Counted from the first letter of the stretch, positions 833 through 19,160 are shown. The stretch is 19,160 nucleotides of DNA from Bermanella sp. (GCA_036960565.1 JBALXQ010000013.1:96051-115210); one strand, 5' to 3'. Notes: generated by a model from the sequence alone, not told the origin. Made by a program: numbers and translations.

Positions 833-1175
833 AGCGGTATCCAATATATTTCTAAACCTAATTAAAGTTTAACGGCTTACTTCTATGTGTTTTATAGTAA
901 GCGCGGCTATATAATTAGGTTCTCTTGACCTGCCCAGTTAGACCCCCCATGTGATTATGTATTTATCCAAGCGCTCAATCTTACTTGCAACATCATTCCC
1001 TATCTTACATAGAAATTGATGATAGCTAATTGGCAGCTCTTTCGCTTCTGAAGGCAGTGCGGTAAGGTGGCTCATATTTTCTAAGTAGATTGGTACTTTT
1101 TGACTTAATTTGTCTACTTGGTATGCCACTGTAAAAAGGAATTACACTGTGTTTGCAATATTATTAACGGAGGGC

Positions 1176-1841
1176 ATGAATCCGTTTTATCAAAATATAT
1201 CCTCTTTCCCCACTGTATTTTTTACCTTCTTCTTAGCACTGACTACCTTGTATTGGCTGGTGGCCGTTCTTGGTTTGATTTCCATCGATATTCTAGATTT
1301 TGATCTTCCTTATATTGAAGGGGCTGATTTAGACATGAGTAACGCATCCGATTTAACCAACGCCAACGCACTGGCAGGGCTCATGTTACGTTTTGGCTTG
1401 AACGGCGTGCCAGTCACAATAATTATTTCCCTGATTTCACTTTTTGGCTGGATATTAAGCTATTACGCTGTTTATTTTTTATTCAGTTTCATCCCTGATG
1501 GATTACTTCAATATATTGCAGGTGTTCCCGTTTTGTTTTTGTCACTTTACTTGGCAGCCATGATGACTGCATTAGTGATAAAACCACTTCGCCCGCTATT
1601 TAAAAAAGCACATCAAGAAACTGAAAAATATGTGTTAGGCCAGGTGGCTGTGGTGAGGACATCACGTGTAGATGAAACATTTGGCGAAGCAGTAATGGCT
1701 GATGGTGGCGCGGGTTTAATTTTAAAAGTAAGAAGCAGTAGCGACAGTCATTTTAAAAAGGGTGATAAGGTCGTGCTTTTTGAATATGTAAAAGAAACCA
1801 ATGTTTATCGCGTTATCTCAGAACAAGAGTTCAACGCGTAA
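1176..1841 (+). CDS. NfeD-like / YqiJ-like (DUF1449-type) inner-membrane protein with C-terminal OB-fold, partner of the downstream flotillin
   Basis: Several hydrophobic TM segments in the N-terminal two-thirds. The C-terminal soluble beta-rich tail (VLGQVAVV...KGDKVVLFEYVKETNVYRV) is typical of NfeD OB-fold. It sits directly upstream of an SPFH protein, as NfeD/YqiJ genes do. The ORF track starts at a TTG (1110). ATG 1176 is preceded by GGAGGG and gives a ~221-aa product. The start is uncertain. Confidence 0.6.
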   Translation: MNPFYQNISSFPTVFFTFFLALTTLYWLVAVLGLISIDILDFDLPYIEGADLDMSNASDLTNANALAGLMLRFGLNGVPVTIIISLISLFGWILSYYAVYFLFSFIPDGLLQYIAGVPVLFLSLYLAAMMTALVIKPLRPLFKKAHQETEKYVLGQVAVVRTSRVDETFGEAVMADGGAGLILKVRSSSDSHFKKGDKVVLFEYVKETNVYRVISEQEFNA

Positions 1842-1903
1842 AGTTCTTAATAATCTAATAACTCAAATCTAACTATTAATATCTTGGAAATGGAATAACC
1901 ACT

Positions 1904-3787
1904 ATGGCCGATCTTTCAGTACTTATGCCTATCATCATGGGCGTTGGACTTATTTTTGTTTTACTTATGGGAGTGGCATCACTCTTTAAATCTTTTTATA
2001 TAAAGGTAGATCAAGGCACAGCGTTAATTGTCAATGATATGAGTCATTCGCCTAAGGTTCATTTCACGGGTGCTTTGGTTTACCCCATTATAAATAAAAA
2101 AGAATTAATGAAAGTATCACTTATTACCTTGGAAGTTGACCGTCGTGGAAAAGACGGGCTTATTTGTGCTGATAATATGCGTGCCGACATCACTGTAGCC
2201 TTTTATTTACGCGTGAATGAAACCACCGAAGACGTTCTAAAAGTGGCTAAGTCAATCGGTGCTGATAGAGCGTCCGATAAAGATGCTGTAAATCAGTTAT
2301 TTAATGCCAAATTTTCAGAAGCCTTAAAAACCGTCGGTAAGCAAATTGAATTTGTTAATCTGTTTGAAAACCGTCAGGAATTTCGCGAGAAAATCATTGA
2401 AGTGATTGGCGATGACCTAAACGGTTACATACTTGAAGATGTTGCCATTGATTACCTAGAGCAAACTCCTAAATCATCTTTGGACCCTACAAATATCCTA
2501 GATGCTGAGGGTATTCGTAAAATCACCGAATTAACCGCTAAGCAAAATGTTCAAACCAACGATTTAGAACGTGACGAAGAATTGGCCATTAAGAAAAAGA
2601 ACGTTGAAACAGTAGAAGCGATGTTAGAGCTAGAGCGTCAGCAATCAGATGCCGAAGCCAAGCAAGAGCGTGAAATTGCAACGATTCGTGCACGTGAAGA
2701 AGCCGAAACTAAAAAGGTACAGGAAGAAGAACGCCTTAAAGCTGAAGGTACCACGATTCAAGTTAATCAGGACCTTGCGGTACAAACTGAAAATCAACAG
2801 CGTGAAATTGAAGTAGCTGAGCAAAATCGTCAACGTGCAGTGGCCATCGAGCAAGAAAAAGTAACTCGTGCTCGTGATTTAGAAATTGTTTCTCGTGAAC
2901 GAGAAGTAGACCTTCAAAGAATAGAAGCTGAAAAAGCCATTGAAATTGAGAAAAAAGAAATTGCGAATGTAATTCGTGAACGAGTGGTGGTCGATAAAAC
3001 CGTTGCGGTTGAAGAAGAGCGTATTAAAGAAGTGCGTGAAATTTCTGAAGCCGATCGAGATAAACAAACAAAAGTTCTCGCAGCCGAAGCTAAAGCCGAA
3101 GAAGAAAAGATTAAACAAGTGAAGGCGGCAGAAGCTGAAGAAATTTCAGCCAAACATAAAGCCATAGAAATCACCACATTGGCCCAGGCTGACTTAGAAG
3201 CCGTGGCTAAAGAAGCGGATGCTAAGAAAAAAATGGCTGAAGGCGTTCAAGCCGAGCGTGCTGCACCCGGTCTTGCCGATGCGAAAGTTCAGGAAGCGCG
3301 TGCTGATGCTCTTGAAAAAGAAGGTTATGCAGAAGCGAACGTTATTAAAGCTAAGGGAGACGCTGAAGCTGATGCCTTGTTAGGTACTGGCCGAGCTGCT
3401 GCAGAAGTGACTCGTGAGCAATTTAAAGCCGAAGCCGATGGCCTTGTTGATAAATTTGATGCCATGAACAACATGAGCGATCAAGCCCGTGACCACGAAG
3501 AGTATCGTATGGGTCTTGAAGTGGCATTGAAAGAAGCACTGGCCACCATTGAAGCTGGTAAAGAAATATCTAAAGAAAATGCTTCTGTTCTGGCGACCGC
3601 GCTTCAGAAAGCCAAAATTGATATTGTTGGTGGTGAAGAGCACTTCTTCGATAACTTTGCCAAGTCACTGTCTATCGGTAAAGCCGTAGATGGTTTAGCA
3701 CAGAAAAGTAGTGTGATATCAGGATTGATTAATAAGGTGGTGCAGCCTGCTGCAAAAACGACCAGTGATGAAAACGTGAAAGCCTAA
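1904..3787 (+). CDS. Flotillin-like SPFH/band-7 family membrane protein (YqiK-like) with long E/A/K-rich coiled-coil region
   Basis: N-terminal TM helix (LSVLMPIIMGVGLIFVLLMGVASLF). The SPFH core (VDQGTALIV...ITLEVDRRGKDGLICADNMRADITVAFYLRV) is followed by a ~280-aa EA-rich flotillin-type coiled coil. It is paired with the NfeD-like gene upstream. Confidence 0.8.
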   Translation: MADLSVLMPIIMGVGLIFVLLMGVASLFKSFYIKVDQGTALIVNDMSHSPKVHFTGALVYPIINKKELMKVSLITLEVDRRGKDGLICADNMRADITVAFYLRVNETTEDVLKVAKSIGADRASDKDAVNQLFNAKFSEALKTVGKQIEFVNLFENRQEFREKIIEVIGDDLNGYILEDVAIDYLEQTPKSSLDPTNILDAEGIRKITELTAKQNVQTNDLERDEELAIKKKNVETVEAMLELERQQSDAEAKQEREIATIRAREEAETKKVQEEERLKAEGTTIQVNQDLAVQTENQQREIEVAEQNRQRAVAIEQEKVTRARDLEIVSREREVDLQRIEAEKAIEIEKKEIANVIRERVVVDKTVAVEEERIKEVREISEADRDKQTKVLAAEAKAEEEKIKQVKAAEAEEISAKHKAIEITTLAQADLEAVAKEADAKKKMAEGVQAERAAPGLADAKVQEARADALEKEGYAEANVIKAKGDAEADALLGTGRAAAEVTREQFKAEADGLVDKFDAMNNMSDQARDHEEYRMGLEVALKEALATIEAGKEISKENASVLATALQKAKIDIVGGEEHFFDNFAKSLSIGKAVDGLAQKSSVISGLINKVVQPAAKTTSDENVKA

Positions 3788-3810
3788 ATAACGTTAGTTT
3801 TAGGATTTAC

Positions 3811-3840
3811 AAAGGGCGCTTAGCGCCCTTTATTTCATTC
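3811..3840 (+). terminator. Rho-independent terminator or attenuator after the flotillin gene
   Basis: Stem aaagggcgc / gcgcccttt with loop tta (3811-3831), followed by tatttcattc. It lies only ~25 bp before the ATG of the giant ORF. Confidence 0.55.
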
Positions 3841-3863
3841 AACTGGCTAAAAAGGATGCTGAC

Positions 3864-6800
3864 ATGGCACAGCCTAATGAACCTTCTGCTGCTGATAATC
3901 TTGTAGATGAAGCCGTTGCACAAGGAGGGGCTTATGAAATTATTCGTAAGCGCCTTGTGGAGCAGGGAAAGCAGTTAAACAGCGAAACCTCTCAATTAAA
4001 CCAAGCAAGACTTAAAGAATTTGGTGCCACGGATATTGATGTGGTGGCTCGGGTGCGAGTGCGCACAGAAAATAACTGCATTGCCCGAGATATTGTTCAG
4101 GTAGGCGAGCATCTATTATTTGGCTATAACGTTTTTATAGGCTTAAAAAAAGAAACTAAAATAGAAGATGTTTTTGCTCTGTTTGATGTAGTTGAGACAG
4201 ACGGCAACTTTGAAATGAAGCCTGTTTCTATGGCGGGTTCTTTTTTATCACAAAGTGGTTTTGTAAATGATTTTGAAGAACTGTACCGCTATTACAAACA
4301 TACCAAGCTTGTTCAGCTCACGATTAAAGGTGGCCGTTTATTGGCGGGCTTTCAAATTGGTGAACGTCTAGAAGATATTCGTGTTTTCCGCTGGTCTATT
4401 TCAGCAGACGGCAAAGATATTCAATATATTGATAACCGTGGCGAACGAGACATTCAGTTACCGCCTGCTTATGATTTTGAGTGGATAGAAACACATCGCG
4501 ATCACCGCATTAATGGTCGCCACCCTCACGTTAATATTCTAGATAAAATATTTGTAGAGACCATTAATGGCGATCTAACCATTAAGGTGGAAAACAATAC
4601 CGAGGATGGCTTTGGCATATACCGAGAGCCAGTAGAAGATAAATCTCAATCACTAGATGATGCAAAAATAAGTTATGCCCAGGTAGGCAGTCTTATATTA
4701 TTAAAAATACTGCCTTATCGCGAAGAGCAGTGGCGTTATCTTATTTTTAATACGACTACTCAAGACGTATTACGAGTGGATGCCATTGGTCAGTCTTGTG
4801 TTCAGTTGCCAGAAGATCACGGTATTATTTTCCCCGGTGGATACTACTTACAAAGCGGTGAATACAAGTCTTTTGATGGTGAAGAAAACAGCCTTACCTT
4901 TAAAAGGGCCATCAAGTCTCCAAATGGCGAAGATGTATTATTTGTATTTTACGACCCAGAAGAAGGTTCAGTAGGGTTATTCTTTTACAACCTAATTAAT
5001 AAAGAATTACAAAACCCTATATATGGGCACGGTTATGCCTTAGCTGAAGATGGCCGACTGGTTATTTTCTCAGCCGAAAACGAACCCACCCGCATTCATC
5101 CTATGCAAATCTGGTCAACACCTTATGTTAGCGATGAATACGCCAGTCAAATCCCAGCTAGCCAAACTTTCTTAGGGAAAATTGGTAATGCTGAATTGGT
5201 TCGCGGGGTATCGGATTTATACAGTGTTTACCGAATGCTGGAAAAACAAGATGTATCTTCTCGTTTATATGAGGAAATCAGCAAGTCGGCCAAAAAAATA
5301 TTTGATGATCACTATTGGATAGAAAGTAGCGACACCCAAGCGATATTTGATGCGTTAAAAAATATTGCTGCTACCTCAGAGCTTGTAATTGATGAATTTG
5401 AAAAAGTTCAGAGTATTCGTCAGCAGTCTGTTAAAGCATTATCGGATGCTCAAAAACAGCAACAATCAATTATTCAAGAAGTGCGCCCAGACAATTGGCA
5501 AACGGCAGAAGAATTTGTAGATGCGCTAGGAAAAATCCGTCGCCAGCGTGGCCATTTAATTACCATTAAAGAATACCGGTATATTGATGTCACCAAAATT
5601 GAGTCTTTAAATACCGATCTTACTAAGATTGAAGACTCGTTAAGTCGACAAACTGTATCCTTTTTATCAGATGAGAAAGCCATAGAGCCCTACCTTGATA
5701 AAATAGACAATATCAATAGAGAAATTGAGCAAGCCCAAACCATTGCCGTGCTTAACCCACTAATTGAAATAGTGGAAAGTACGGCATCTGGTTTAGATTT
5801 ATTGTCAGAATTAATGGGTTCGTTAAAAGTACAGGATCCTACGGTTCGCACTAAAATAATAGATGCTATTTCTCAAGTTTATTCTAAGCTGAATCAAACC
5901 AAAGCCCGTGCCAAGCACAAGCAAAAAGGTTTAGGCTCGGAAGAGGCCATTGCCCAGTTTGGTGCTCAGTTTAAACTGTTCTCGCAAAGTATTACCAACG
6001 CACTAGGCTTGGCCATCACGCCAGATAAATGTGATGAACAGCTATCTAGGTTGCTGGTGCAACTAGAAGAGTTAGAAAGCCAATTCAGTGATTTTGATCA
6101 GTTCATTGCCGACATTTTAGATAAGCGTGAAGAGATCTATGAATCCTTTGAAAGCCACAAACAAAGGCTGTTAGACGAGCAACAACGTAAAGCGCAGTCG
6201 GTGTTTGATGCCTCAAGTCGAATTTTGTCTAGCATAGAAAAGCGTTCACTTAAATTTAGTGAAAGTGATGAGCTAAATACCTACTTTGCCTCCGATTCAC
6301 TGGTCATGAAAATTCGTGAGCAAGCGGATGTATTGCGTGGCCTTGGCAGTGAAGTAAAAGCCGATGATATAGATGCGCGCTTTAAAGCCATTAAAGAACA
6401 AGCGATACGCTCCCTAAGGGATAAAAGCGATATCTATGAAGCCGGCGGCAGTATTATTAAACTGGGTTCACGGCATAAGTTTTCGGTCAATACTCAAGAA
6501 CTTGATTTAACGATCTTGCCAAAAAATGGCGAGCTGAATGTCCATTTAACGGGCACCAATTATTTTGAAGCCATTACCAAACCCCAGTTATTGGCATTAA
6601 AAGATTATTGGGAAATGTCTTCTGAATCTGAAACCCCTCAGGTCTATCGTTCAGAATATTTGGCATTTTTAATATTGCAGTCAGCGCGCTCTGGAGATTT
6701 TGGTCTTTCATTGGAACTATTGAATAATGCAATAGCCGATACAGATCAGCTTAATAAGCTAGTGCAAGAATTCGCGGCACCGCGCTACAAAGAAGGTTAT

Positions 6801-9158
6801 GAAAAAGGCGTTCATGATCACGATGCACAATTAATATTAAGCGCACTGGTGCCAGCCATAACACGGGCAGAAGAACTAAGTTTTGATCCCTTATGCCGTG
6901 CCGTCGCGCAAGTTTTTTGGGCTAACATTAAAGGCAAAGAAACGGGGCGCAAAACACTTAATGATAAACCTAGCGAGGGGTTATCTTATAGTACTTGGGC
7001 AGAGCGCGCTCAATCGGCCAAACAAATGCAATCGGTATTCTCAAGCACCGATGCGCTTAATTTGCTGGCTAAAGAGATTGAAGACGCTATCACGCAGTTT
7101 TTAGCCATTAACCCGATAGATGTCACGCCGTTGGATATTAAACGTGCTGCTGACTATTTGGTGGCTGAATTGTCTCGTGAACGTTTAGAATTTATATCCA
7201 GCAAATACGCCACTGAATTGGTTGAGGAGTTAAAGCGCTCTTTAGATGAAAGCTCTTGGCGTCAGTACCAAGGCGCGTTAAAAAAGATGTTGGGCTTTCC
7301 GGCTCAGCGTTGGAATTTAACCCGTGCTTGGTTAGAAGCATTAATACGAGACAAAAAGTTAGATCACCTGGCTCGTTATATTCCTGAAGCCATTGCATTA
7401 ATTAATGCCGATGAACGTATCTCTAGGCGCGCTACTCAAGCAGATCTTGAGTTAAATATTGAAGGTTTATTGGGAGATCACCGCACCATAGAAAGCCAAA
7501 AGCTATCGTTTGCTATAGATGCGTTTTTACAGCGACTAGAACACCATCAGCAAGTGGTAGTACCAGCTTATCAAGAATACTTAAAAGTAAGGCAAGACAT
7601 TATTGCAACCGAGCGAGCAGACTTAAAGCTGGAGTCCTTTAAGGCGCGGCCATTAAGTTCGTTTGTTAGAAACAGGCTGATTAACGAATCTTACCTGCCG
7701 CTCATTGGCGATAACTTTGCCAAGCAGATGGGCACAGTGGGGGATAATAAGCGTACCGACCTCATGGGTTTGTTAATGATGATCTCACCGCCTGGTTACG
7801 GTAAAACCACGCTCATGGAATATGTGGCCAGTAAGCTGGGTTTAATTTTTATGAAGATCAACTGTCCCTCTCTTGGGCACGATGTGTTGTCTCTTGATCC
7901 AGCACAAGCGCCTAATGCCACCGCTCGCCAAGAGTTAGAAAAACTCAACCTAGCGCTTGAGATGGGTGAGAATGTGATGTTGTATCTTGATGATATTCAG
8001 CACACCCATGCTGAGTTTTTACAAAAGTTTATTTCCTTGTGTGATGGTACTCGCCGTGTGGAAGGTGTGTGGAAGGGCGAACCCAAAACATACGACATGC
8101 GCGGCAAGAAGTTTAGCGTGGTCATGGCCGGTAACCCTTATACCGAATCGGGTGAAGCCTTTAAAATCCCCGACATGCTCGCCAACCGTGCAGACATTTA
8201 TAACCTAGGCGACATCCTTGGCGGAATGGATGAACAGTTTGCCTTAAGCTATATCGAAAACTCACTCACCTCCAACCAAGTGCTGGCGCCTCTCGCCACG
8301 CGTGAAACCAGCGATGTATACAAGTTAATTAGTTTGGCGCAAGGCGCAAACGTAGCGGCGACAGATTTAAAACACCAATACAGTGGTGCCGAAATTAATG
8401 AGATCACTCAAATATTTAAAAAAATGTTTGTGATTCAAGATGTGGTTCTGAAAATTAACATGCAATACATTGCCTCAGCCGGGCAAGATGATAAATACCG
8501 TACCGAGCCTTCGTTTAAATTACAGGGCAGTTATCGCAACATGAACAAGATGACCGAAAAAATTTCATCGGTTATGAATCATGATGAGTTAATGCAAATG
8601 ATCAATGATCATTACATTGGTGAAGCTCAGTTGCTTACAGCAGGGGCCGAGGGCAACCTGTTAAAACTTGCCGAACTGCGAGGCAATTTAACCCAAGAGC
8701 AAGACCTGCGCTGGAAACAGATTAAAAAGGACTTTTTAAGAAACAAAACCATGGGCGGTGATGACGCCGATGTAGGCGCTAAAGTAGTGGTGCAATTGGC
8801 TGACCTAGCCGAAGGCATGAAAAATATCAGTAATGCCGCACTTATGGCCGCTAAACAAAATGCCATTAAAAAGCCTGATGTTAACCAAGCACTGTCTAAT
8901 ACGTTAGAGCAGGGCATGGATAAACTATTAAAGGTGATTAAAGACAATAAACCTAATGTGGAAGTGGTTAATCAGCCGGTGCCGGGTATTGGAAAAATAT
9001 TAACGGTTTTGGCCGACACCATAGAACACAGTATTTTCCCTATTGTAAAAAGTATGGATAAAAAGCTCGATATCGATCTTAAAACTCATGAAAAAATGAA
9101 AGAAATTTCTGAGCAATTAAGAAACCTAGAAATAGATGCGGCCATTAAAAAACTATGA
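3864..9158 (+). CDS. Giant (1764-aa) uncharacterized protein: long N-terminal non-ATPase region and coiled-coil middle, with one AAA+ (AAA_5-like) ATPase module near the C-terminus
   Basis: Uninterrupted ORF with an AAGGA RBS 7 nt upstream. Walker A is MISPPGYGKTTLMEYV (~nt 7785-7812). Walker B is VMLYLDDIQH (~nt 7981-8001), DD rather than DE. A sensor-like VVMAGNPYTE...ANRADIY motif follows. No other recognisable catalytic motifs are seen by eye. Confidence 0.75.
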   Translation: MAQPNEPSAADNLVDEAVAQGGAYEIIRKRLVEQGKQLNSETSQLNQARLKEFGATDIDVVARVRVRTENNCIARDIVQVGEHLLFGYNVFIGLKKETKIEDVFALFDVVETDGNFEMKPVSMAGSFLSQSGFVNDFEELYRYYKHTKLVQLTIKGGRLLAGFQIGERLEDIRVFRWSISADGKDIQYIDNRGERDIQLPPAYDFEWIETHRDHRINGRHPHVNILDKIFVETINGDLTIKVENNTEDGFGIYREPVEDKSQSLDDAKISYAQVGSLILLKILPYREEQWRYLIFNTTTQDVLRVDAIGQSCVQLPEDHGIIFPGGYYLQSGEYKSFDGEENSLTFKRAIKSPNGEDVLFVFYDPEEGSVGLFFYNLINKELQNPIYGHGYALAEDGRLVIFSAENEPTRIHPMQIWSTPYVSDEYASQIPASQTFLGKIGNAELVRGVSDLYSVYRMLEKQDVSSRLYEEISKSAKKIFDDHYWIESSDTQAIFDALKNIAATSELVIDEFEKVQSIRQQSVKALSDAQKQQQSIIQEVRPDNWQTAEEFVDALGKIRRQRGHLITIKEYRYIDVTKIESLNTDLTKIEDSLSRQTVSFLSDEKAIEPYLDKIDNINREIEQAQTIAVLNPLIEIVESTASGLDLLSELMGSLKVQDPTVRTKIIDAISQVYSKLNQTKARAKHKQKGLGSEEAIAQFGAQFKLFSQSITNALGLAITPDKCDEQLSRLLVQLEELESQFSDFDQFIADILDKREEIYESFESHKQRLLDEQQRKAQSVFDASSRILSSIEKRSLKFSESDELNTYFASDSLVMKIREQADVLRGLGSEVKADDIDARFKAIKEQAIRSLRDKSDIYEAGGSIIKLGSRHKFSVNTQELDLTILPKNGELNVHLTGTNYFEAITKPQLLALKDYWEMSSESETPQVYRSEYLAFLILQSARSGDFGLSLELLNNAIADTDQLNKLVQEFAAPRYKEGYEKGVHDHDAQLILSALVPAITRAEELSFDPLCRAVAQVFWANIKGKETGRKTLNDKPSEGLSYSTWAERAQSAKQMQSVFSSTDALNLLAKEIEDAITQFLAINPIDVTPLDIKRAADYLVAELSRERLEFISSKYATELVEELKRSLDESSWRQYQGALKKMLGFPAQRWNLTRAWLEALIRDKKLDHLARYIPEAIALINADERISRRATQADLELNIEGLLGDHRTIESQKLSFAIDAFLQRLEHHQQVVVPAYQEYLKVRQDIIATERADLKLESFKARPLSSFVRNRLINESYLPLIGDNFAKQMGTVGDNKRTDLMGLLMMISPPGYGKTTLMEYVASKLGLIFMKINCPSLGHDVLSLDPAQAPNATARQELEKLNLALEMGENVMLYLDDIQHTHAEFLQKFISLCDGTRRVEGVWKGEPKTYDMRGKKFSVVMAGNPYTESGEAFKIPDMLANRADIYNLGDILGGMDEQFALSYIENSLTSNQVLAPLATRETSDVYKLISLAQGANVAATDLKHQYSGAEINEITQIFKKMFVIQDVVLKINMQYIASAGQDDKYRTEPSFKLQGSYRNMNKMTEKISSVMNHDELMQMINDHYIGEAQLLTAGAEGNLLKLAELRGNLTQEQDLRWKQIKKDFLRNKTMGGDDADVGAKVVVQLADLAEGMKNISNAALMAAKQNAIKKPDVNQALSNTLEQGMDKLLKVIKDNKPNVEVVNQPVPGIGKILTVLADTIEHSIFPIVKSMDKKLDIDLKTHEKMKEISEQLRNLEIDAAIKKL

Positions 9159-10669: not shown

Positions 10670-10717
10670 ATGCACAGTATGAAGCGGGCATTAATGCATG
10701 CCCTAATTAAGCGTGGA

Positions 10718-11041
10718 CTATCTTTCCAAGTGCTTAATCTTACCTTCAACACCATCCCACTCTTCGGCGTCGGCAAGTTTCTCTTTCATTTCTGTGATGT
10801 TTGGCCAAATTTCAGCTAGCTCAGCATTTAGCTCGGTAAACTTCTCTTGTCCTGCTGGCACTTCATCTTCGCTGAAGATGGCTTCTGCTGGACATTCTGG
10901 CTCACACAAAGCGCAATCGATGCACTCGTCAGGGTGAATTACCAAAAAGTTAGGGCCTTCGTAGAAACAGTCTACAGGGCACACTTCAACACAGTCTGTG
11001 TATTTACACTTGATGCAGTTATCAATAACAACGAAGGTCAT
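10718..11041 (-). CDS. fdxA: 7Fe ferredoxin (Azotobacter-type ferredoxin I), [3Fe-4S][4Fe-4S]
   Basis: [55 protein letters not shown] is the canonical FdxA cysteine pattern. 107 aa. Conserved convergent neighbour of mutS in many gammaproteobacteria. Confidence 0.9.
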
Positions 11042-11210
11042 GGTCTTTTCTCTGTCTCATCGGCGCTATGATAGCTGCGCTCTGTTTTAATCTTGTGGAC
11101 ACTTTCTGGGCGGCTATTCTAGTGATGCAGCCCAGATTGAGCAAGTGTTTGGCCCAATTCTTAATATAGCGGGCCTTTTAAAAAGGCCGCCAAGGTACCT
11201 GATTTTACCG

Positions 11211-11236
11211 TTTTGTAAAAGGTGCTTTTAAGCACC
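11211..11236 (-). terminator. Probable intrinsic terminator downstream of mutS
   Basis: Stem ggtgct/agcacc (loop ttta) at 11221-11236. On the minus-strand transcript it is followed by UUUUACAAAA (reverse complement of 11211-11220). A second hairpin ggcctttt/aaaaggcc at 11173-11189 lacks a U-tract. Confidence 0.4.
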
Positions 11237-11355
11237 CTAGTACAATTATCTGTGTACTTTATACGCTTTTTATCTATAGCTTTAAAATCGTTTAAAGTAA
11301 TGAATCTAATCTATTTACTGAATTAACGATTATGATCAAAAGTACCTGCTAAAAC

Positions 11356-14052
11356 CTACAGTTTTGCCTTTAGTTCATAGAGTAGTTCAAGTGCTTGGCG
11401 CGGGCTTAAATCATCTGGGCTAATCTCTTTAAGCGCTTCTTCTACTTTAGAAGGTGCCGCCATAGCAAACATATCGCCTTGCGGAGAGAGTGCTTGCGGT
11501 GAAGGTTTAGTTGCCTTAGCGGGCTTCACATCGCTGGCAGGCTCTTCAACTTTTTTAACCACCGCAATAGCTGCCTGTTGCTCAGCCTCAACACTGCCGT
11601 CTTCTAGCATTACCAGTTTAGATTTGGCCTGATCAATTACTTCAGTGGGCACACCCGCTAACTTGGCCACTTGTAAACCATAGCTTTGGCTAGCTGGGCC
11701 TTCTTCCACGTGGTGCATGAAAATAATATGGTCATTGTGTTCGGTGGCGGTAAGGTGAACATTCACCACGTCGTCATCTAAGTCGGCTAACTGGGTCATC
11801 TCAAAATAGTGAGTGGCAAACAAGGTGTAAGCACTCACTTTACTTACTAGGTGCTGAGCACAAGCCCAGGCTAAAGATAAACCATCAAAGGTGCTGGTAC
11901 CGCGGCCCACTTCATCCATTAATACCAGGCTGTGTTCGGTGGCGTTATGCAAGATATTCGCGGTTTCGGTCATTTCCACCATGAAGGTAGAGCGGCCACC
12001 GGCTACATCGTCGCTAGAACCCATGCGGGTAAATATTCGGTCAATCAGGCCAATAGTGGCAGCCTCGGCAGGTACATAACTGCCAATGTGAGCCATTAAC
12101 ACTATGTGCGCGGTTTGACGCATATAGGTCGATTTACCACCCATGTTCGGGCCGGTAATCATTAGCATTTTGCGCTGTGGGTTAAACGCCACATCGTTGG
12201 CCACAAAGGGATCTTCAATTACCGCTTCTACTACCGGGTGGCGACCCTGGGTAATGTTAAAGCCGGTATCGGTATTTAATACTGGGCGCACATAGTTTTG
12301 AGTCACGGCGCGCTCGGCCAAATTCGACAATACATCCAGCTCGCTAATGGCGGCGGCAGTGACTTGTAGATCGGCAATTTGTTGCGCCAAGGCTTCTACA
12401 ATTTCTTCGTAAAGTGCTTTTTCACGGGATAACGCACGGCTCTTGCTAGATAGAGCCTTGTCTTCAAATTCTTTTAATTCAGGGGTAATAAAGCGTTCGG
12501 CGTTTTTAAGCGTTTGCCTGCGTACATATTCAACCGGCGCTTTGTCCGACTGCGCCTTGCTGATCTCAATGAAATAACCGTGCACACGGTTGTAGCCCAC
12601 TTTTAAGGTGCTAATGCCGGTGGCGGCACGTTCGCGGGTTTCTATATCAATTAAGAACTGGCCCGCGTTTTCACTTAAACCGCGTAATTCATCTAGTTCG
12701 CTATCAAAGCCTTCGGCTATTACGCCGCCGTCACGCACCACTACCGGTGGGTTTTCAATAATGGCTTTTTGTAAATTGGCCACGGTTTCTGGGTAGGTGC
12801 TAATTTGCTTGCCCAGCATGGCAACGGGGGCGGCATCTACTTCGTTAATGGCGTTTTGCAAACTTGGCAGAGTAGCCAGTGCATCACGTAGGCGGGCTAA
12901 ATCGCGTGGGCGTGCCGAGCGTAATGCAATGCGGCTTAAGATACGTTCTATGTCACCAATTTGCTTTAACACGCTGTGGATATTTTCATAACCGTAGCTG
13001 TCTATCATGGCGCTAATGGCCAGTTGGCGATCGTTTAACACACTGTGATCGCGCAGCGGCCTATTTAACCAGCGGCGCAATAATCGGCTGCCCATAGAAG
13101 TGGCAGTACGATCTAGCACCCAGGCTAGGGTGAAGTCGCTGTCGCCATTAAGGTTAATGTCTATTTCTAAATTCTTACGGCTGGCCGCATCCATCACGAT
13201 GGAGTCGTCGGCTTGTTCAACCATAATGGTGCGAATATGGGGTAACTCGGTACGCTGGGTTTCTTGTGCGTAGTGAATAAGGCTACCGGCGGCTTCAATG
13301 CCTTGCTGTAAATCTTGGCAACCAAAACCGTGTAAATCTTTAGTTTGAAATTGCTGCGTTAATAGACGGAATGCGGTTTCAAATTCAAACTCCCATGGTG
13401 GCAGCTTCTGGCAACCACTGCGCTCGCTAATGGCGCTTGGGTATTCTTTGTCTTCACTAATAAGTAACTCGGCAGGGCGGAGGCGCTGTAATTCAGCTTC
13501 TAGCGCTTCTTCGCTGGATACTTCCATCATGGTAAAGCGGCCAGAGCTAATGTCTAAACTGGCAATGCCGTGATTTTGTTTTTGGGTGCGGCCATCTATG
13601 TGTGTGCTTACCGCCACCAACAAAGAATCACGCTTTTCGTCTAGAAAGCTCTCATCGGTCAGGGTACCTGGGGTAATAACCCTAACCACTTTGCGCTCAA
13701 CCGGGCCCTTGCTGGTGGCAGGGTCACCTATTTGCTCAACCACCGCCACGCATACACCCATTTTCACAAGCTTGGCAATGTAGCCCTCGGCACTATGATA
13801 CGGAATACCGGCCATGGGAATGGCGTTGCCACCGGTTTTACCACGGGCGGTAAGGGTGATATCCAGTAGGCGGGAGGCTTGTCTGGCGTCGTCATGAAAC
13901 ATTTCATAAAAATCGCCCATGCGATAAAAAACCAAGTGGTTTTTATGCTCGGCCTTAATGCGATTATATTGCTGCATCATGGGCGTCTCTGCGGGTTTAG
14001 CAGATGGTTTAGCGGCCTTTGATTTGTTTGTGGGTTTAGCTACGTTTGTCAT
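11356..14052 (-). CDS. mutS: DNA mismatch repair protein MutS
   Basis: Conserved [14 protein letters not shown]...[11 protein letters not shown] mismatch-binding N-terminus. Walker [22 protein letters not shown]-signature region and the usual C-terminal dimerisation tail. The 898-aa product is longer than typical because of a ~25-aa Lys/Ala/Pro-rich N-terminal extension before the conserved PMMQQY. Confidence 0.95.
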
Positions 14053-14198
14053 GTTAACTCTATATAAATCAAAGGGTTGTGAATGTGGTTGGCATTTAAC
14101 TGTGTGGACAAAGGAATCGCCTGACTAGCTGCCCATTCACTTGGTATTAGGAATGGCGCACAGGATAGCAAAACTCACCTTAAACCACTATCGGGGAT

Positions 14199-14284
14199 GG
14201 CGGATTGTGGCGGGCGTTTTAGGAAATGAGGGCTATGGGAGTGAGGGCGAACGGGTGGAGAGGAGTGAGTGCTTAAATTGAAGA
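14199..14284. repeat. Copy A of a ~85-bp GA-rich direct repeat (tggcggattgtggc...gagggcgaacgggtggagaggagtgagtgcttaaattgaaga), ~90 % identical to copy B at 16491-16581
   Basis: Direct alignment of the two regions. They differ mainly by a short indel (gggcg vs cggaattctaa) and three point differences. Copy A lies between the hipA-like stop and the mutS start. Confidence 0.7.
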
Positions 14285-14387
14285 AGGAAGTAAGACTAAT
14301 AAGCTGCTGAATTCTAACGGGCCAGCTTGCATGGGGCCGCAGGGTCCATGTGGTTGATTATATCTAACCCGGGAGGTTCAGGATCAA

Positions 14388-15890
14388 TTACTCTCGCCGA
14401 TTGTGGTTTGATCCAAAGGGCTTAGTCTGCTTGTGTTTAGAATCAGGGTGATTGGCGGTAGCGCCATGTGTGCGTTTTGATTCAAAGGGCTTAGTCTTCC
14501 TGTTTTCAGGTCCTGGGTAAACAGGGGTAACGCCATGTGAATACTCCTCAAGCCTTTTCACTAAAAGCGTGTGATTGGCAGTTGAGATGTCAGCCAATTT
14601 ACTCACCATTCTAATTTCACTGTCTAAATACAAATCAGCCGATACTTCCTTAATGACAGATAAGATTGAAGACAAAGCTTCATCACAAAACCTTAAATAA
14701 ATTTTCATTAGTTGCCTGCCCCCTAAACCCGTATCTTGAAAATACAGATCAAGGTCGGATCGTTTTATCTCTTGTACACATCGTACTGCCCCAAAATTCA
14801 TGGCCATTAGATGCTCCAACGGATATACCTGCGTTGAGACCAAATCATAGGCGGGCGTGAGTGTTAAGCGGCCGTTGTCTAAATGCAGGAATGAAAAATT
14901 CTTGGCATGGGCATCATCGTTACCGCAAATAATGCTAAAAAATATTCTGAAACCGCATTCTTGCAAATCCTTAATAGGTAACGTGCTCTTGTCTCTAATG
15001 GTGGTAAATAATTCTTTAATTCCGGGTCCAGCTTTATACCCCGGCATTCCGGTATCTGTATTCATTTCATATTTACTGCCAGGGGGAAAACCGCATATTT
15101 GGCAAAGGTCTTCTTGATGAATACGTTCAATATGGCCGCCCGAAATCTTACGGTCGTATCTTTCTACCAATAAGGCAGTGTCTTCATCACCATCGGCGTT
15201 GTGGTAATCCAGTAATGTGACAGGGGCAACCGTTAAACCTGATCGGGCCGCGGCAGTCATGCAAATATACTCATTAATCACAAGGTAGGGGAACTCTTTA
15301 TCGTTACGTGGAGGCTTAATGATATGAGTGGAAGGCTGGTCTAGGGAGTCATAAAAATTTAGGTTTCCATCATCATTTATTTCCACAAATACAGGCAGCT
15401 TAGGCTGGGCCCCGGCCAGACTCATACGCGTTCTATTTGGAGTTCCGTCTTCTTTATGATTTTTATCATTTACGTGAAATGGATTAACTTCAATCTTGTT
15501 AATGAGGTTGCTTAGCTGGGTTTCATTTAGTTTTTTAGATTGGCCTAAAGCCGGTTTTAAATAGTCTTGTGGGAACAATTCAATGGCACCGGCGAAATCC
15601 CCACCCATCACTTCAATTAAACGCTGAATATCCTCTGAGTTTAAACGCAGAATTTTTTCAATTCGCTCCATAACCTTTCCTTCGGGGAAGAGGTTGCTTA
15701 AAAATATGAAGGTTTCTTTATTGTTATAGGCTTCACTTCTAATAGGAAACCGCACAGACAATATAGGTGTGCCTGCCACAGCATTATCAACGTAATCTTT
15801 TGAATATTGGAAGGCCATAGTGGCGTCGTCATTAAACGTTAGTTGCCCTACGTTTTTTGACAGAAGGTAAACATCAAATACAGCACTCAT
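14388..15890 (-). CDS. HipA-like Ser/Thr protein kinase toxin (HipA N-terminal plus catalytic domains) with a repeat-derived C-terminal tail
   Basis: MSLAGAQPKLPVF (HipA P-loop-like motif) and catalytic-loop GNDDAHAKNFSFL (DxHxKN). ~450-aa HipA-sized core plus a ~48-aa tail encoded by a ~65-bp tandem duplication. The start codon overlaps the upstream HTH stop (ATGA). Confidence 0.8.
   Translation of the reverse strand: MSAVFDVYLLSKNVGQLTFNDDATMAFQYSKDYVDNAVAGTPILSVRFPIRSEAYNNKETFIFLSNLFPEGKVMERIEKILRLNSEDIQRLIEVMGGDFAGAIELFPQDYLKPALGQSKKLNETQLSNLINKIEVNPFHVNDKNHKEDGTPNRTRMSLAGAQPKLPVFVEINDDGNLNFYDSLDQPSTHIIKPPRNDKEFPYLVINEYICMTAAARSGLTVAPVTLLDYHNADGDEDTALLVERYDRKISGGHIERIHQEDLCQICGFPPGSKYEMNTDTGMPGYKAGPGIKELFTTIRDKSTLPIKDLQECGFRIFFSIICGNDDAHAKNFSFLHLDNGRLTLTPAYDLVSTQVYPLEHLMAMNFGAVRCVQEIKRSDLDLYFQDTGLGGRQLMKIYLRFCDEALSSILSVIKEVSADLYLDSEIRMVSKLADISTANHTLLVKRLEEYSHGVTPVYPGPENRKTKPFESKRTHGATANHPDSKHKQTKPFGSNHNRRE
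14405..14540. repeat. Imperfect ~65-bp tandem duplication (ttgatYcaaagggcttagtct...gcgccatgtg) inside the 3' end of the HipA-like ORF
   Basis: Two consecutive similar units are read directly. They encode the KTKPFESKRTHG / KQTKPFGSNHNR repeats in the predicted C-terminus. Confidence 0.5.
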
Positions 15891-16294
15891 GTTTTAAACT
15901 CCATTTTCACACCCAGTGTATGCAAGGCGACTAAAACCTTATCTAGCATCAGTGTTGGCTTGTTAGCTTCAAGATTTGATATGAACTTAGTAGAGAGGCC
16001 ACTAAACCCTGCAAGTGATGCCTGTGTAAAGCCGAGAACCGACCTGCTTTCTTTTACTAATTTACCAAGGTCAATATCTTTGCTGATAGGGTGCAAACGA
16101 ATACCAAGGGTAGAGGTAAGGGCTAAAACTTTATCGAGTTGAACACTTGTTTTACCGCATTCAAATTGCGAGATAAATTTTACGCTTACATTTGCATACA
16201 TTGATACGGTGGCCTGATCTAAACCCAGCTCCTTTCTCCTTTGATTGCAAAGCAACCCTAGATAGCTGGCATCATGTGTTTGTTCAAAAAACAT
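15887..16294 (-). CDS. Tandem-XRE (two helix-turn-helix domains) transcriptional regulator, HipB-like antitoxin partner
   Basis: Two XRE-type HTH units: LGLDQATVSMYANVSVKFISQFECGKTSVQLDKVLALTSTLGIRL and LGFTQASLAGFSGLSTKFISNLEANKPTLMLDKVLVALHTLGVKM. ATG at 16294 is preceded by GAGGGA. The longer track ORF to 16381 would be read through the operator repeats and is rejected. The stop overlaps the hipA-like ATG. Confidence 0.7.
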   Translation of the reverse strand: MFFEQTHDASYLGLLCNQRRKELGLDQATVSMYANVSVKFISQFECGKTSVQLDKVLALTSTLGIRLHPISKDIDLGKLVKESRSVLGFTQASLAGFSGLSTKFISNLEANKPTLMLDKVLVALHTLGVKMEFKT

Positions 16295-16317
16295 AAATCC
16301 CTCAATAGGCGTTAGTT

Positions 16318-16490
16318 TTACCGTACGGACATATCTTACACATAATAGCTGGAGTTGGCAGGGGTTTAACCGTACGTACATATCTTATATTAAATAGAGC
16401 GAATTTGATGTGAATATAACCGTACGTACATATTTTGTATGAAATAGGGAGGTATGGAGCTGATTTTACCGTACGGACATATTATCGGGT
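16318..16490. promoter_or_regulatory. Array of four ~20-bp direct repeats (TWACCGTACGKACATATYTT) spaced 49-50 bp, covering the promoter and 5' region of the HTH/HipA-like operon
   Basis: The CCGTACG cores start at 16321, 16370, 16420 and 16469. Each contains a CCGTACGG or GTACGTAC palindromic core. The first unit lies ~27 bp upstream of the HTH start codon. Probable operators for the tandem-HTH repressor. Confidence 0.55.
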
Positions 16491-16581
16491 TGGCGGATTG
16501 TGGCCGGAATTCTAATTAGGAAATGAGGGTTATGAGAGTGAGGGCGAACGGGTGGAGAGGAGTGAGTGCTTAAATTGAAGA
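16491..16581. repeat. Copy B of the ~85-bp GA-rich direct repeat (see 14199-14284)
   Basis: Direct alignment with copy A. It lies just outside the operator array and ~280 bp upstream of the HIT gene. Confidence 0.7.
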
Positions 16582-16873
16582 CGCAATGGCGCAATGACGC
16601 TAAGGGGTGGTGTTAAGTGTTGGCGTTAAATGGTGGCGTGTTGAGTGGGCGCTGCCCTTGATTTAGGTCATTACCTTAATGTTAAGAACGGTAAATCCCA
16701 CATGGAAGAGTTGGAGAAATAGCATACAAGTCTGTATAAAGGTGTGGATTTGGGAAAACGTACCAGTTTTGGGCGATTTTTCTTCGGTATTCAATATTAA
16801 GTATCAGGCCAAAATGAACGGCGCTGCTCTGCTTAAACACGAGTGGTTTGCTTAGGTTGGAGTGGTTGGGTAC

Positions 16874-17296
16874 ATGGATATAAAGCACTTAGGCGAAGCT
16901 GCTAAGCCCTGCCCATTTTGCCAGATTTTTGCTGGCACCATTAATAAAGAAATACTGTTCGAAAACGAAACAGGCTTTGTAGTACGTGATGGCTTCCCCA
17001 TTACCAAAGGCCACACCCTAGTTATCCCCAAGCACCATGTGGGCAGCTTTTTTAAAATTACTCAGCAACAGCGCCAAGACTTGTTTGCCCTAATAGACCT
17101 AGCCAAAGTCCAGCTTGATAAAGAATTCCAGCCTGAAAGTTACAACATAGGCATAAACGATGGTGAAGCCGCAGGGCAAACCATCCCCCATTTACACATA
17201 CACCTAATTCCCCGTTATACAGAAGCAGGCAAAGACCCACGCGGTGGTGTGCGCTGGTTGGTGCCTGAAAAAGCCGACTATTGGAGCAATCCATGA
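16874..17296 (+). CDS. HIT (histidine triad) family nucleotide hydrolase/transferase
   Basis: Histidine triad motif IPHLHIHLIPR. The KGHTLVIPKHHV region matches the HIT fold. ~140 aa. The track ORF starts at a GTG (16862). The in-frame ATG at 16874 is preferred. The stop overlaps the next gene's ATG. Confidence 0.75.
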   Translation: MDIKHLGEAAKPCPFCQIFAGTINKEILFENETGFVVRDGFPITKGHTLVIPKHHVGSFFKITQQQRQDLFALIDLAKVQLDKEFQPESYNIGINDGEAAGQTIPHLHIHLIPRYTEAGKDPRGGVRWLVPEKADYWSNP

Positions 17297-18639
17297 GCTT
17301 AACCTCTTATCTAGCGGCTTTTTCCAAAATTAAAATGAACGCATCCACGGGCCATAGCAGCCCACATAAAGCGTGTTTGCTACTCGCCATTATGGATTTA
17401 GTGGCAAAAGAGCGTATTGCCAATAACCGCATTTTTTTAAATGACGAACTTACGCAGCACTTTAACCAACACTTTAGCCAAGTGGCCCAAGCCAGTGATA
17501 AAGCCGATATAAGTCAGCCGTTTTTCTATTTGCAGTCATCCAGCTTTTGGCATCACAAAGTTATCGCCAGTTTCGCGCAAGAATATAAACAACGCACAGC
17601 CCCCAAGCAGCGCAATCATGGCGGTATTAACAAAGTAAACCAGCTTATTCAATACGCCCATGTAGACCCCGAATTGTTTGAATACTTTAAAAGCCATACC
17701 GCCCGCGAAGCACTCACCCAAACACTATTAAGTAAGCTAAATTCCCAGCAACAACAAAAGCTACTTATACCAGCCAATGGTTGGAACTGGCATGAGTGTG
17801 AACTTATCGTAAACGACTATTTTGAAATGCTGGCACAAGAACTAAAGGGCAAAAATTACAATAAAGCGCAGCATAATCGCGACCTAGTGCAAGCCATGAA
17901 TGAAAGCCGAAATAGAAGTGCCATTGAGAACAAGCACCAAAATATCAGCGCTATATTAAATGAAATGAGAATGCCCATTATTGATGGCTATAAGCCCCTC
18001 AGTAATTACCAGCGTAATATCCTGCCCGATGTCATTGGTGCAACCTTGGCGCAGCGCCAAGATATTCATAAGCTTATTAAGCAAATAAACCAACAGCCTG
18101 TGGCAGTGCCCACGGTAAAAAACATACTGGATGCATTGGTAGCAACACCCCAAGCCAAAAAAGCGCCCACCAAAAAGAACCAGCAAGCAGAAAAAAGGGC
18201 GCAATACGATGTAAAGCCCTATCCACTGCCTAAAAAAGATTACCTAGCGCAAGAAGCCGTAAACCAAGCGTTAGGCCTAAAGGGTGAAGAATATGTACTT
18301 AACTACGAAAAAGCGCGCTTAATCCTAGCTGGAAAAGAAACCCTAGCCGACAAAATAGAGCACCTAAGCCTAGAAGATGACCGCTACGGTTACGACATTC
18401 ACTCGTACAGTAACAACGGCCAAGACCGCTTAATAGAAGTAAAAACCACCAATTACGACCGTTATACTCGGTTTTATGTGAGCCCCAACGAGTTAAACGT
18501 GTCCAATAAACGGGGGCAAGACTACCACCTATACCGTGTATTTAATTTCAGCACCGCCCCCCAACTATTTATTAGCCAAGGCAGTTTAGAAAGCGGGTAC
18601 AATCTCGCCCCATCTGCCTACGCCGCAAACATAAAGTGA
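17293..18639 (+). CDS. Uncharacterized protein with C-terminal DUF3883-like PD-(D/E)xK nuclease-fold domain, and an N-terminal domain of unknown family
   Basis: C-terminal YDIHSY...(N)...DRLIEVKTT...YHLYRV fits a D...ExK restriction-endonuclease-like core, as seen in DUF3883 domains common in R-M and defence loci. ATG 17293 overlaps the HIT stop (ATGA). The track start at 17281 is a TTG. Confidence 0.6.
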   Translation: MSLTSYLAAFSKIKMNASTGHSSPHKACLLLAIMDLVAKERIANNRIFLNDELTQHFNQHFSQVAQASDKADISQPFFYLQSSSFWHHKVIASFAQEYKQRTAPKQRNHGGINKVNQLIQYAHVDPELFEYFKSHTAREALTQTLLSKLNSQQQQKLLIPANGWNWHECELIVNDYFEMLAQELKGKNYNKAQHNRDLVQAMNESRNRSAIENKHQNISAILNEMRMPIIDGYKPLSNYQRNILPDVIGATLAQRQDIHKLIKQINQQPVAVPTVKNILDALVATPQAKKAPTKKNQQAEKRAQYDVKPYPLPKKDYLAQEAVNQALGLKGEEYVLNYEKARLILAGKETLADKIEHLSLEDDRYGYDIHSYSNNGQDRLIEVKTTNYDRYTRFYVSPNELNVSNKRGQDYHLYRVFNFSTAPQLFISQGSLESGYNLAPSAYAANIK

Positions 18640-18643
18640 ATCT

Positions 18644-19160
18644 ATGACCACCACCCTATTACAAGCGGAAGAACAAACGTTTCTTAATACGCTAGAAAAG
18701 AAACTCTGGACCAGCGCCAACAAGCTATTACCATCGCTTGATGCATCCCAGTACAAGCACGTTATGCTGGGCTTGGTTTTTATAAAGTATGTGAGTGATG
18801 CCTTTGATATTCGCCGCGAACAGCTTAAAACCCAGCTACTAGACCCAAAACACGATTACTACTTCGACCCAGACGAGTTTGAAAACGGCGTAGACGACGA
18901 AGAATACCAAGCCGAAATTCAGCACGAACTAGAGCAGCGCGACTACTACGCCGAGCAAAATGTATTCTGGGTGCCAACCCAAGCGCGCTGGTTATTTTTG
19001 CAAGATAATAACAAGGTCGCCATTGGCGGTGCCGATCTCACCTTTAAAGATAAAAACGGCGAAGACAAAATCTTAAAAGTAAGCTCAGTAGGCCACTTAA
19101 TAGACAACGCCCTAGACGCCATAGAAATAGACAACCCAAAACTGAAAGGCGTACTCAACA
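18644..19160 (+). CDS. hsdM: Type I restriction-modification system DNA methyltransferase subunit HsdM, N-terminal part (truncated by window end)
   Basis: LWTSANKLLPSLDASQYKHVMLGLVFIKYVSDAF is the characteristic HsdM N-terminal domain motif. The ORF is open to the end of the window. Confidence 0.75.
   Translation, partial: MTTTLLQAEEQTFLNTLEKKLWTSANKLLPSLDASQYKHVMLGLVFIKYVSDAFDIRREQLKTQLLDPKHDYYFDPDEFENGVDDEEYQAEIQHELEQRDYYAEQNVFWVPTQARWLFLQDNNKVAIGGADLTFKDKNGEDKILKVSSVGHLIDNALDAIEIDNPKLKGVLN

Follow-up and report, generated by a model that had tools for sequence, protein, structure and literature searches.

A hipBA cassette with a predicted single-chain tandem-HTH HipB, bracketed by direct repeats upstream of mutS in a Bermanella sp. 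genome

Introduction

The stretch of 19,160 nucleotides (nt) analysed here, hereafter the window, comes from a metagenome-assembled genome (MAG) of Bermanella sp., and all positions are counted over its whole length. Immediately upstream of the core gene mutS it carries a two-gene module made of hipB, coding for a regulator with two helix-turn-helix (HTH) domains, and hipA, coding for a kinase of the HipA family; hipA, hipB and mutS are all on the minus strand (Table 1). The module is bracketed by two copies of a direct repeat, designated R, of which the left copy (R-L) lies between hipA and mutS and the right copy (R-R) lies next to the operator-like repeats that precede hipB. Judged from sequence comparison, the module is portable and probably a self-contained type II toxin-antitoxin (TA) operon, and the R repeats probably represent the scar left by recombination, not the sites of a dedicated recombinase. 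HipBA of Escherichia coli is a type II TA system consisting of the HipA kinase and the HipB repressor, with four operators, and in the module described here HipB would likewise neutralise HipA and repress the operon. For the most part, nothing at this locus is out of the ordinary: a defence island with HIT, PDC-S36 and type I restriction-modification (RM) genes carries a HipBA TA cassette. What is modestly new consists of the single-chain tandem HipB and of a conserved flank with a G-quadruplex (G4) motif. With the junction between island and core genome placed to the base, the locus also offers a precise example of a TA cassette settled beside a mutator gene.

Two HTH domains in one HipB chain

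The two genes of the cassette overlap by the four nucleotides ATGA, which read TCAT on the plus strand at 15887-15890. The likely start of hipB is the ATG at 16294 (GAGGGA-N3-ATG), which gives a protein of 135 aa, the same length as in the NCBI annotation of an identical protein; the start of the maximal open reading frame (ORF), at 16381, falls within the operator repeats. Proteins from a Bermanella sp. MAG that are 100% identical to HipB (P0121) and HipA (P0001) are present in the NCBI collection. The overlap and the Pfam and TIGRFAM matches bear out the ATGA-coupled pair of a two-HTH regulator and a HipA-family kinase immediately upstream of mutS that had been described in the original prediction, a reading of the DNA from its sequence alone.

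The TIGR03070 (couple_hipB) profile matches HipB in two stretches (2.2e-34), and the two halves of the protein align with each other at 40% identity (6e-15). A confident AlphaFold (AF2) model built from a 16-sequence alignment (pLDDT 85.9, pTM 0.76) comprises two HTH units of four helices, each continuing into a short strand. Just as in the HipBA systems of Shewanella oneidensis MR-1 and E. coli K-12, hipB lies upstream of hipA and overlaps it, and each of the HTH units can be superposed, with deviations of 0.8-1.9 A, on the solved HipB of S. oneidensis (0.8 A), Legionella pneumophila and E. coli. No solved chain covering both HTH units together was retrieved in the structure comparison. With two HTH domains per 135-aa chain, HipB differs from the small single-HTH homodimer, the HipB of S. 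oneidensis and E. coli being a dimerising monomer of about 70-90 aa.

The tandem organisation extends well beyond the window. All of the close relatives (L081-L092, these and similar handles designating the loci used for comparison), the HipA proteins of which are 59-93% identical to that of the window, possess a double-HTH partner of 135-164 aa, and the distant relatives L101 (a Pseudomonadales MAG) and L102 (Bermanella sp. WJH001), with HipA identities of 35-39%, have a tandem HTH too. Since the tandem HTH is kept down to 35% HipA identity, it can be considered a family trait of this HipA subfamily. An exhaustive profile-free search yielded about 12 clusters, defined at 50% identity, of 133-135-aa proteins that match HipB from end to end. 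The modules of marine Gammaproteobacteria (L102, L101 and L081-L092) share with that of the window the two genes, a double-HTH partner of 132-164 aa and the 4-nt overlap; unlike the window, however, none of them is bracketed by R or located beside mutS, and R occurs once, in L081- and L094-type loci only. By contrast, the best plasmid relatives, the Y4mF/Y4mE modules of rhizobial plasmids, resemble the cassette in their TIGR03070 matches (to which both HTH domains of the window's HipB correspond), their TIGR03071 matches, their gene order and their 4-nt overlap, but their partners are Y4mF-type proteins of 75-76 aa with a single HTH, and their HipA is only 29-32% identical. The duplicated HTH of HipB, pointed out as atypical in the earlier reading, is thus atypical with respect to the characterised HipB proteins and to the single-HTH Y4mF partners, and is shared by the whole subfamily instead of being peculiar to this locus.

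From these sequence features we infer that the single HipB chain would replace the usual homodimer as an intramolecular pseudo-dimer, bound to oriented quasi-palindromic operators. Such a covalent pseudo-dimer should alter both the stoichiometry and the symmetry of the HipA-HipB-DNA repression complex, and the tandem HipB system would offer a simple test case for the role of HipB dimer symmetry. A two-HTH HipB is mentioned neither in a paper devoted to HipA phylogeny (PMC8262856) nor in the other literature searched. As far as could be found, the tandem-HTH hipBA modules of marine organisms have been annotated and left undescribed, so that the HipBA subfamily with a single-chain double-HTH antitoxin, conserved in marine Gammaproteobacteria, apparently lacks a description in the literature searched.

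The HipA kinase

The HipA protein combines a Couple_hipA domain (PF13657, 2.3e-18), also recognised at residues 6-105 by TIGR03071 (1.3e-15), with a HipA_C domain (PF07804, 6e-49), and owing to the fusion of the Couple_hipA subdomain to the kinase it is classed as HipA and not as HipT/HipS. The closest solved relative is the HipA of S. oneidensis (4PU5, 1.7e-32), followed by that of E. coli (3TPD, about 1e-25); the similarity to both is thus limited, and what is held in common is the Couple_hipA and HipA_C core together with the P-loop and catalytic motifs. Three motifs do not vary between the relatives in the HipA alignment (A3), namely SLAGAQPK (P-loop), GNDDAHAKN (catalytic) and PAYD. As far as the sequence can tell, the kinase motifs, comprising the P-loop, the catalytic Asp and the Mg-binding Asp, are intact.

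The C-terminus of HipA differs from that of the S. oneidensis and E. coli proteins by an additional tail, a basic, lineage-specific extension of about 40 aa; all the relatives end at 458-481 aa. The tail is the product of a shift in frame close to the usual stop, combined with the tandem duplication of a 69-nt unit, and the nucleotide homology with L081, L084 and L085 ends inside it, at 14477-14522.

Operators and promoter candidate

Upstream of hipB, within 16316-16482, four operator-like direct repeats of 19 nt (O1-O4) occur in one orientation, 49-50 bp apart. Their consensus in gene orientation, ATATGTMCGTACGGTWAWA, was derived from 19 sites in 5 loci and combines a palindromic core, CCGTACGG, with invariant asymmetric positions, which makes it a quasi-palindrome. 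The operators are kept in number, orientation and sequence in the window, L081, L084, L085 and L094. A candidate promoter is flanked by these putative 19-bp operators. The presence of several putative operators around a promoter candidate is common to the cassette and to the S. oneidensis and E. coli systems, from which it differs by the 19-bp quasi-palindromes in a single orientation spaced by 49-50 bp. In L102 (2597-5533), repeated TACCGTTCGGT motifs of the ACCGT(A/T)CGGT type, resembling the operator core of the window, are found upstream. A degenerate operator following R-L, proposed from a weak similarity to O4, was rejected: the sequence concerned belongs to the mutS-upstream block of the cassette-free relatives and has only the 4-nt GATA in common with O4.

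The promoter of the TA operon may have consequences downstream of hipA. A scan of the minus strand from the hipA stop to the mutS start (14053-14387) revealed no site resembling an intrinsic terminator, and transcription from the autoregulated TA promoter could therefore continue into mutS. If such a read-through occurs, derepression of the TA operon would be linked to the expression of mismatch repair.

Portability of the cassette

The cassette, from the operators to hipA, is present in at least 4 other, unrelated genomic contexts with HipA proteins 59-93% identical, and it is consequently regarded as portable. In L081, the neighbours consist of GmrSD, AAA_15, methylase/Bse634I and HNH_2 genes on one side, and of an AMP-binding fragment and a lysozyme gene on the other. 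MazG-like and Fic genes accompany the cassette in L087, and other genes again in L084 and L085. In these last two loci the alignment with the window begins at O4, 4 nt from the inner edge of R-R, and the limits of homology across the relatives (Table 1) define the common unit as the segment bounded by O4 and the 3' end of hipA. The mobile or acquired character attributed to the cassette from the start is upheld by these unrelated contexts as well as by the lack of the cassette in relatives with a 93% identical MutS. No relative of HipA was detected in the viral contigs searched, and the plasmid relatives do not exceed 32% identity, so that the cassette is not evidenced as phage- or plasmid-borne.

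The HNH_2 gene is intact in L081 (316 aa); in the window, the HIT and PDC-S36 genes take its place from position 16798. In L102 an HNH_2 gene, 70% identical at the nucleotide level to that of L081, also lies beside the tandem-HTH hipBA module, the HipA of which is 35% identical to that of the window, but on the opposite side.

The flanking repeat R and its distribution

The direct repeats reported earlier as about 85 bp long are real and slightly longer, 96 and 100 nt, and about 92% identical, with 8 substitutions and one 4-nt indel between R-L and R-R; a common TATC stretches them to 14189 and 16483, respectively. They share an identical core of 46 nt (14239-14284 and 16536-16581), and a 34-nt probe taken from the core matches the window twice, in R-L and R-R only, for an expectation of 0 in shuffled sequences. 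The plus strand of R contains 69-73% purine, 41-47% G and 7-9% C. No inverted repeat or hairpin was found in R, the minimum free energy amounting to -0.1 to -5 kcal/mol for the minus strand with non-significant z-scores for both strands; the imperfect inverted repeats folding into a hairpin that characterise the attC site of an integron cassette are therefore lacking. Neither R nor the leader corresponds to an Rfam family, at gathering or at permissive thresholds.

The G4 motif located in R-L is the only canonical one of the window (mean of 0.06 per window in shuffled sequences; 27 occurrences in 1.74 Mb of fetched loci). L081 and L094 carry it in their R copies as well, and it is broken in R-R by a change of GGG to GAG. 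A stretch of 42 nt in R-L (14207-14248) is matched at 100% identity by the one copy of R present in each of L081-L083 and L094. A small ORF of 16 codons in R was considered and rejected, because non-synonymous substitutions separate the copies and the downstream reading differs in L081.

In the collections, which were scanned by exact matching, a 22-nt core of R gave 0 matches among 185,579 species-representative genomes, and a 30-nt degenerate core gave 0 matches in viral contigs and was found in 2 metagenome contigs of JGI, both corresponding to L081-type loci. The search for further copies covered the window and the fetched loci, the rest of the source genome lying outside it; BLAST of R in the 1.74 Mb of fetched loci retrieved only L081-L083, L093 and L094. 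In the sister loci L081-L083 and L094, R is present once, bordering O4 on the upstream side and passing without a break into a spacer and the start of the divergent HNH_2 gene. R-R is the orthologue of this single copy, and the cassettes of L084, L085 and L087 are devoid of R. On these searches, R is non-coding G-rich island DNA and not a dispersed or ubiquitous repeat family.

The mutS-upstream junction in relatives

In three contigs of close relatives (L095-L097, MutS 93% identical), the whole downstream synteny of mutS is kept, with an fdxA-like gene, a Zn-ribbon gene, an M90 peptidase gene and the gene of a giant DUF3686 ATPase, and an FAA_hydrolase gene and an AraC regulator gene are found upstream, in the absence of any cassette or island. 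The nucleotide homology with the window (85%) runs from 10710 to 14078, resumes in the conserved 53-nt block at 14140-14192, and then stops. Expressed from the other side, the homology of the cassette-free relatives with the window starts only at GATAGTGG, and the window is without some 190 nt that L095-L097 hold between the conserved block and the ATG of mutS. L098-L100 (82% MutS) share both the block and the break point, at which an island with a P4-type integrase and type I RM genes begins in their case; the homology break at 14192-14194, common to all of L095-L100, matches R-L at its outer edge. It may be that the conserved 53-nt block is an integration hotspot. The integrase of L098 (8431-9800), L099 and L100 consists of the Arm-DNA-bind_3 and Phage_integrase domains and is accompanied by a type I RM/FRG island; no att sites of the L098-type integrase island were found within 10 kb of sequence. 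No tRNA or tmRNA gene that could serve as an integration target was found. A promoter TTGCTA-N17-TAATAC in the conserved block is a poor match to the consensus, is absent from the scan output, and is not claimed.

When R and its flanks were compared by Smith-Waterman with the upstream DNA of the cassette-free L095-L097 and L098, the scores fell within the range of shuffled sequences. Due to this absence of any trace of R in cassette-free mutS-upstream DNA, R is considered island DNA, neither a native mutS-upstream sequence nor derived from an attB core, and no single copy of the repeat is seen at the cassette-free sites of L095-L097 or at the L098 junction.

In L105 (83% MutS), a permease gene and recA-recX occur upstream of mutS and the 53-nt block is undetected. 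The closest species-representative genome, L001 (Oceaniserpentilla sp., 78% MutS), has Rhs genes near mutS and is too distant for an empty-site comparison. A variable mutS neighbourhood, occupied by a defence island in the window, by integrase and type I RM genes in L098 and by Rhs genes in L001, recalls the mutS-adjacent islands and the enteric mutS-rpoS region. In enteric bacteria, the polymorphic DNA is bounded by the 3' end of mutS and by rpoS. In the window, by contrast, the variation is on the 5' side of mutS, synteny with L095-L097, L098 and L105 is kept on the 3' side, and rpoS is lacking, which leaves only a loose parallel of the hypervariable enteric region that had been evoked.

Origin of the second repeat copy

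In the four-way alignment of R (A5), the two copies of the window have in common a central version, which is derived, and an insertion of 10 nt, both missing in L081 and L094, and these common derived features argue for a duplication by recombination specific to this lineage. In the mutS- or operator-proximal third of R, R-L keeps the state of L081 and L094, and R-R has diverged; the 8 substitutions between R-L and R-R are all located in the outer 50 nt, the central 46 nt being free of them (Fisher p = 0.006). Since R occurs once in the sister loci and the second copy is lineage-specific, the repeats are read as a recombination scar, in agreement with the recombination-generated flanks that were one of the two options of the original prediction.

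The second copy, between hipA and mutS, would have arisen in the lineage of the window along one of two routes, either a Campbell-type homologous insertion of a circular segment comprising R, the operators and hipBA, or a tandem duplication followed by a deletion via a shared GATA microhomology. GATA alone is shared by both junctions, and the two routes are indistinguishable here. Gene conversion, or further exchange, would later have evened out part of the differences between the copies. Direct repeats of about 100 bp would in turn permit the RecA-dependent loss of the cassette, or its amplification.

Some observations fit less easily with a scar. None of the loci represents an intermediate, with a single R beside mutS or a tandem cassette. 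The outer 42 nt of R-L are fully identical to L081 and L094, for cassettes only about 90% identical, and L081 and L094 are identical to each other across R (alignment A5, read by eye) as against 91% overall. This pattern of identity hints at selection on R or at recent exchange, neither of which is predicted by a pure scar. In addition, the linkage across the repeats rests on the assembly of a MAG.

The same identities constitute an argument for R as a functional cis-element under selection at both places, acting as a regulatory or promoter-leader element of the HNH_2/hipBA pair, or as a G-quadruplex affecting transcription or recombination. The invariance of the 42-nt segment in L081-L083 and L094, as against about 90% identity in the flanks, and the recurrence in L081 and L094 of the sole canonical G4 of the window suggest that R may have such a function, and R adjoins the operator array of hipBA in one place and the conserved mutS-upstream block in the other. 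However, R-R, the copy in the native position, lacks one G-tract and has 7 other changes, the L084, L085 and L087 cassettes do without R, and R shows no Rfam match, no significant fold and no conserved small ORF on direct reading of the copies. Uneven divergence can also result from recombination. A selected cis-element is judged an unlikely explanation.

Somewhat less probable still is the interpretation of the two R copies as attL and attR, which would make the cassette an integrase-less cis-mobilisable element (CIME) moved by a recombinase encoded elsewhere, in a CIME-like accretion with a mutS-proximal attB. The exact coincidence of the repeats with the core/island junction on one side and the cassette/operator edge on the other, the P4-type integrase island of L098-L100 at the same mutS-upstream junction and the occurrence of the cassette in several contexts would all be accommodated by this interpretation. 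But only hipB and hipA lie between the repeats, and no integrase domain was recognised in the 10 ORFs scanned in the window, the HsdM-like frame (18644-19160) being outside the scan. The similarity of R to the L095-L097 sites and to the L098 junction is no better than chance, the cassettes of L084, L085 and L087 lack R, those of L081 and L094 have one copy each, R has neither inverted repeats nor a stable fold, and the conserved mutS-upstream block has no second copy elsewhere in the window. Taken together, the lack of an integrase, the absence of R at cassette-free sites, its unstructured character and the existence of cassettes not flanked by R leave unsupported the att-type flanks that formed the other option of the original prediction.

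By analogy with the G4 associated with pilE in Neisseria, R might also be conceived as a conserved G4-forming recombinogenic element, seeding exchange at the mutS-proximal end of the island and possibly modulating the expression of mutS, an idea that appears very unlikely. Were it correct, homologous or illegitimate exchange could capture, duplicate or swap cassettes such as hipBA, and R, being located immediately upstream of mutS on the template strand, could modulate the expression of that gene.

An assembly artefact, namely a chimeric join of strains through the identical 46-nt core, has in its favour the MAG source, the co-occurrence in public metagenomes of related strains with different alleles, and the combination of an identical centre with different flanks. 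It is nevertheless highly improbable, since a mis-join would yield one hybrid repeat and not two copies with their own unique flanks; moreover, R-L would still demand, in real genomes, one R downstream of hipA and one beside mutS, and its outer edge corresponds to the base to the homology break of L095-L100. Finally, the unusual composition and the non-coding intergenic position of R might evoke a dispersed intergenic family of the repetitive extragenic palindrome or miniature inverted-repeat transposable element kind, unrelated to the cassette, which is scarcely credible for a sequence with no third copy in the window and with so narrow a distribution in the genomes, viral contigs, JGI contigs and fetched loci.

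Organisation of the locus and neighbouring genes

A mosaic defence island, of which the hipBA cassette makes up the end nearest to mutS, extends past the end of the window. The original placement of the cassette between mutS and an RM locus is exact on the mutS side; on the other side the RM locus is only partly adjacent, as the HIT and PDC-S36/NOV_C genes intervene. The 98-nt spacer between the hipA stop and R-L found no match by BLAST against all the fetched loci.

Table 1. Features of the window and segments homologous to it in other loci.
Feature	Position	Strand	Remarks
mutS	11356-14052	minus	898 aa, core gene; Pfam MutS_I-V (five MutS domains)
Conserved mutS-upstream block	14140-14192	minus	last piece of core-genome homology; kept in L095-L100 (83% and 78%)
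R-L, left direct-repeat copy	14194-14289		96 nt; outer edge = core/island junction
G-quadruplex motif G3N4G3N5G3N4G3	14230-14255	plus	inside R-L; regex scan
Spacer, hipA stop to R-L	14290-14387	minus	98 nt, unique to the locus
hipA	14388-15890	minus	500 aa, HipA-family Ser/Thr kinase toxin (by homology)
Tandem duplication 69 nt x 2, hipA 3' tail	14402-14539	minus	23-aa repeat
hipB	15887-16294	minus	135 aa, predicted single-chain tandem-HTH antitoxin/repressor
O1-O4, operator-like 19-bp repeats	16316-16334, 16365-16383, 16415-16433, 16464-16482	minus	
Sigma-70-like promoter candidate TTCACA-16-TAATAT	16387-16414	minus	between O3 and O2; consensus scan only
R-R, right direct-repeat copy	16487-16586		100 nt; begins 4 nt from O4
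Island DNA common to L081-type loci	16587-16797		90% nucleotide homology, window 14522-16797 vs L081 9979-7747
HNH_2 pseudogene remnant	16702-16797	plus	first ~32 codons, stop at codon 7
HIT-family gene	16862-17296	plus	Pfam; PADLOC ThsC2-like HIT 2.4e-15
PDC-S36/NOV_C nuclease-like gene	17281-18639	plus	Pfam; PADLOC PDC-S36 7.6e-89
HsdM-like open frame	from 18644, off window end	plus	read from translated motif, no profile match behind the HsdM name
Homology to window, L081-L083	14522-16797		takes in R-R and the HNH_2 start
Homology to window, L084	14514-16483		stops at O4
Homology to window, L085/L086	14477-16473		stops at O4
Homology to window, L087-L092	14682-16491		as 14682-16236 and 16365-16491; 65-72% identity

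Next to R-R, a G/T-rich segment (16587-16680) contains a 13-nt unit, GGTGGCGTTAAAT, repeated 2.6 times in tandem at 16606-16639, and 21 nt of it are missing in L081.

At the opposite end of the window, a conserved block of three genes (1110-9158) codes for a membrane-like ORF of 243 aa, a coiled-coil protein of 627 aa and a DUF3686/DUF7902/AAA ATPase of 1764 aa. The 1764-aa protein bears the label 'ATPase involved in DNA repair', and the coiled-coil protein has no Pfam match. A PADLOC scan restricted to the 627-aa and 1764-aa genes, the 243-aa ORF being outside it, gave no match. Syntenic counterparts of these two genes occur in L095 (649 and 1763 aa), and the counterpart of the 1764-aa gene is also present in L096 and L097, where it runs off the contig ends. 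Intergenic tandem arrays are located at 13-166 (49 nt x 3.3, 76% identity) and at 713-804 (3.2 perfect copies of a 25-nt unit and then 2.8 copies of a 9-nt unit), and related arrays with a period of about 51 nt are found in L096 and L097 at the matching position downstream of fdxA.

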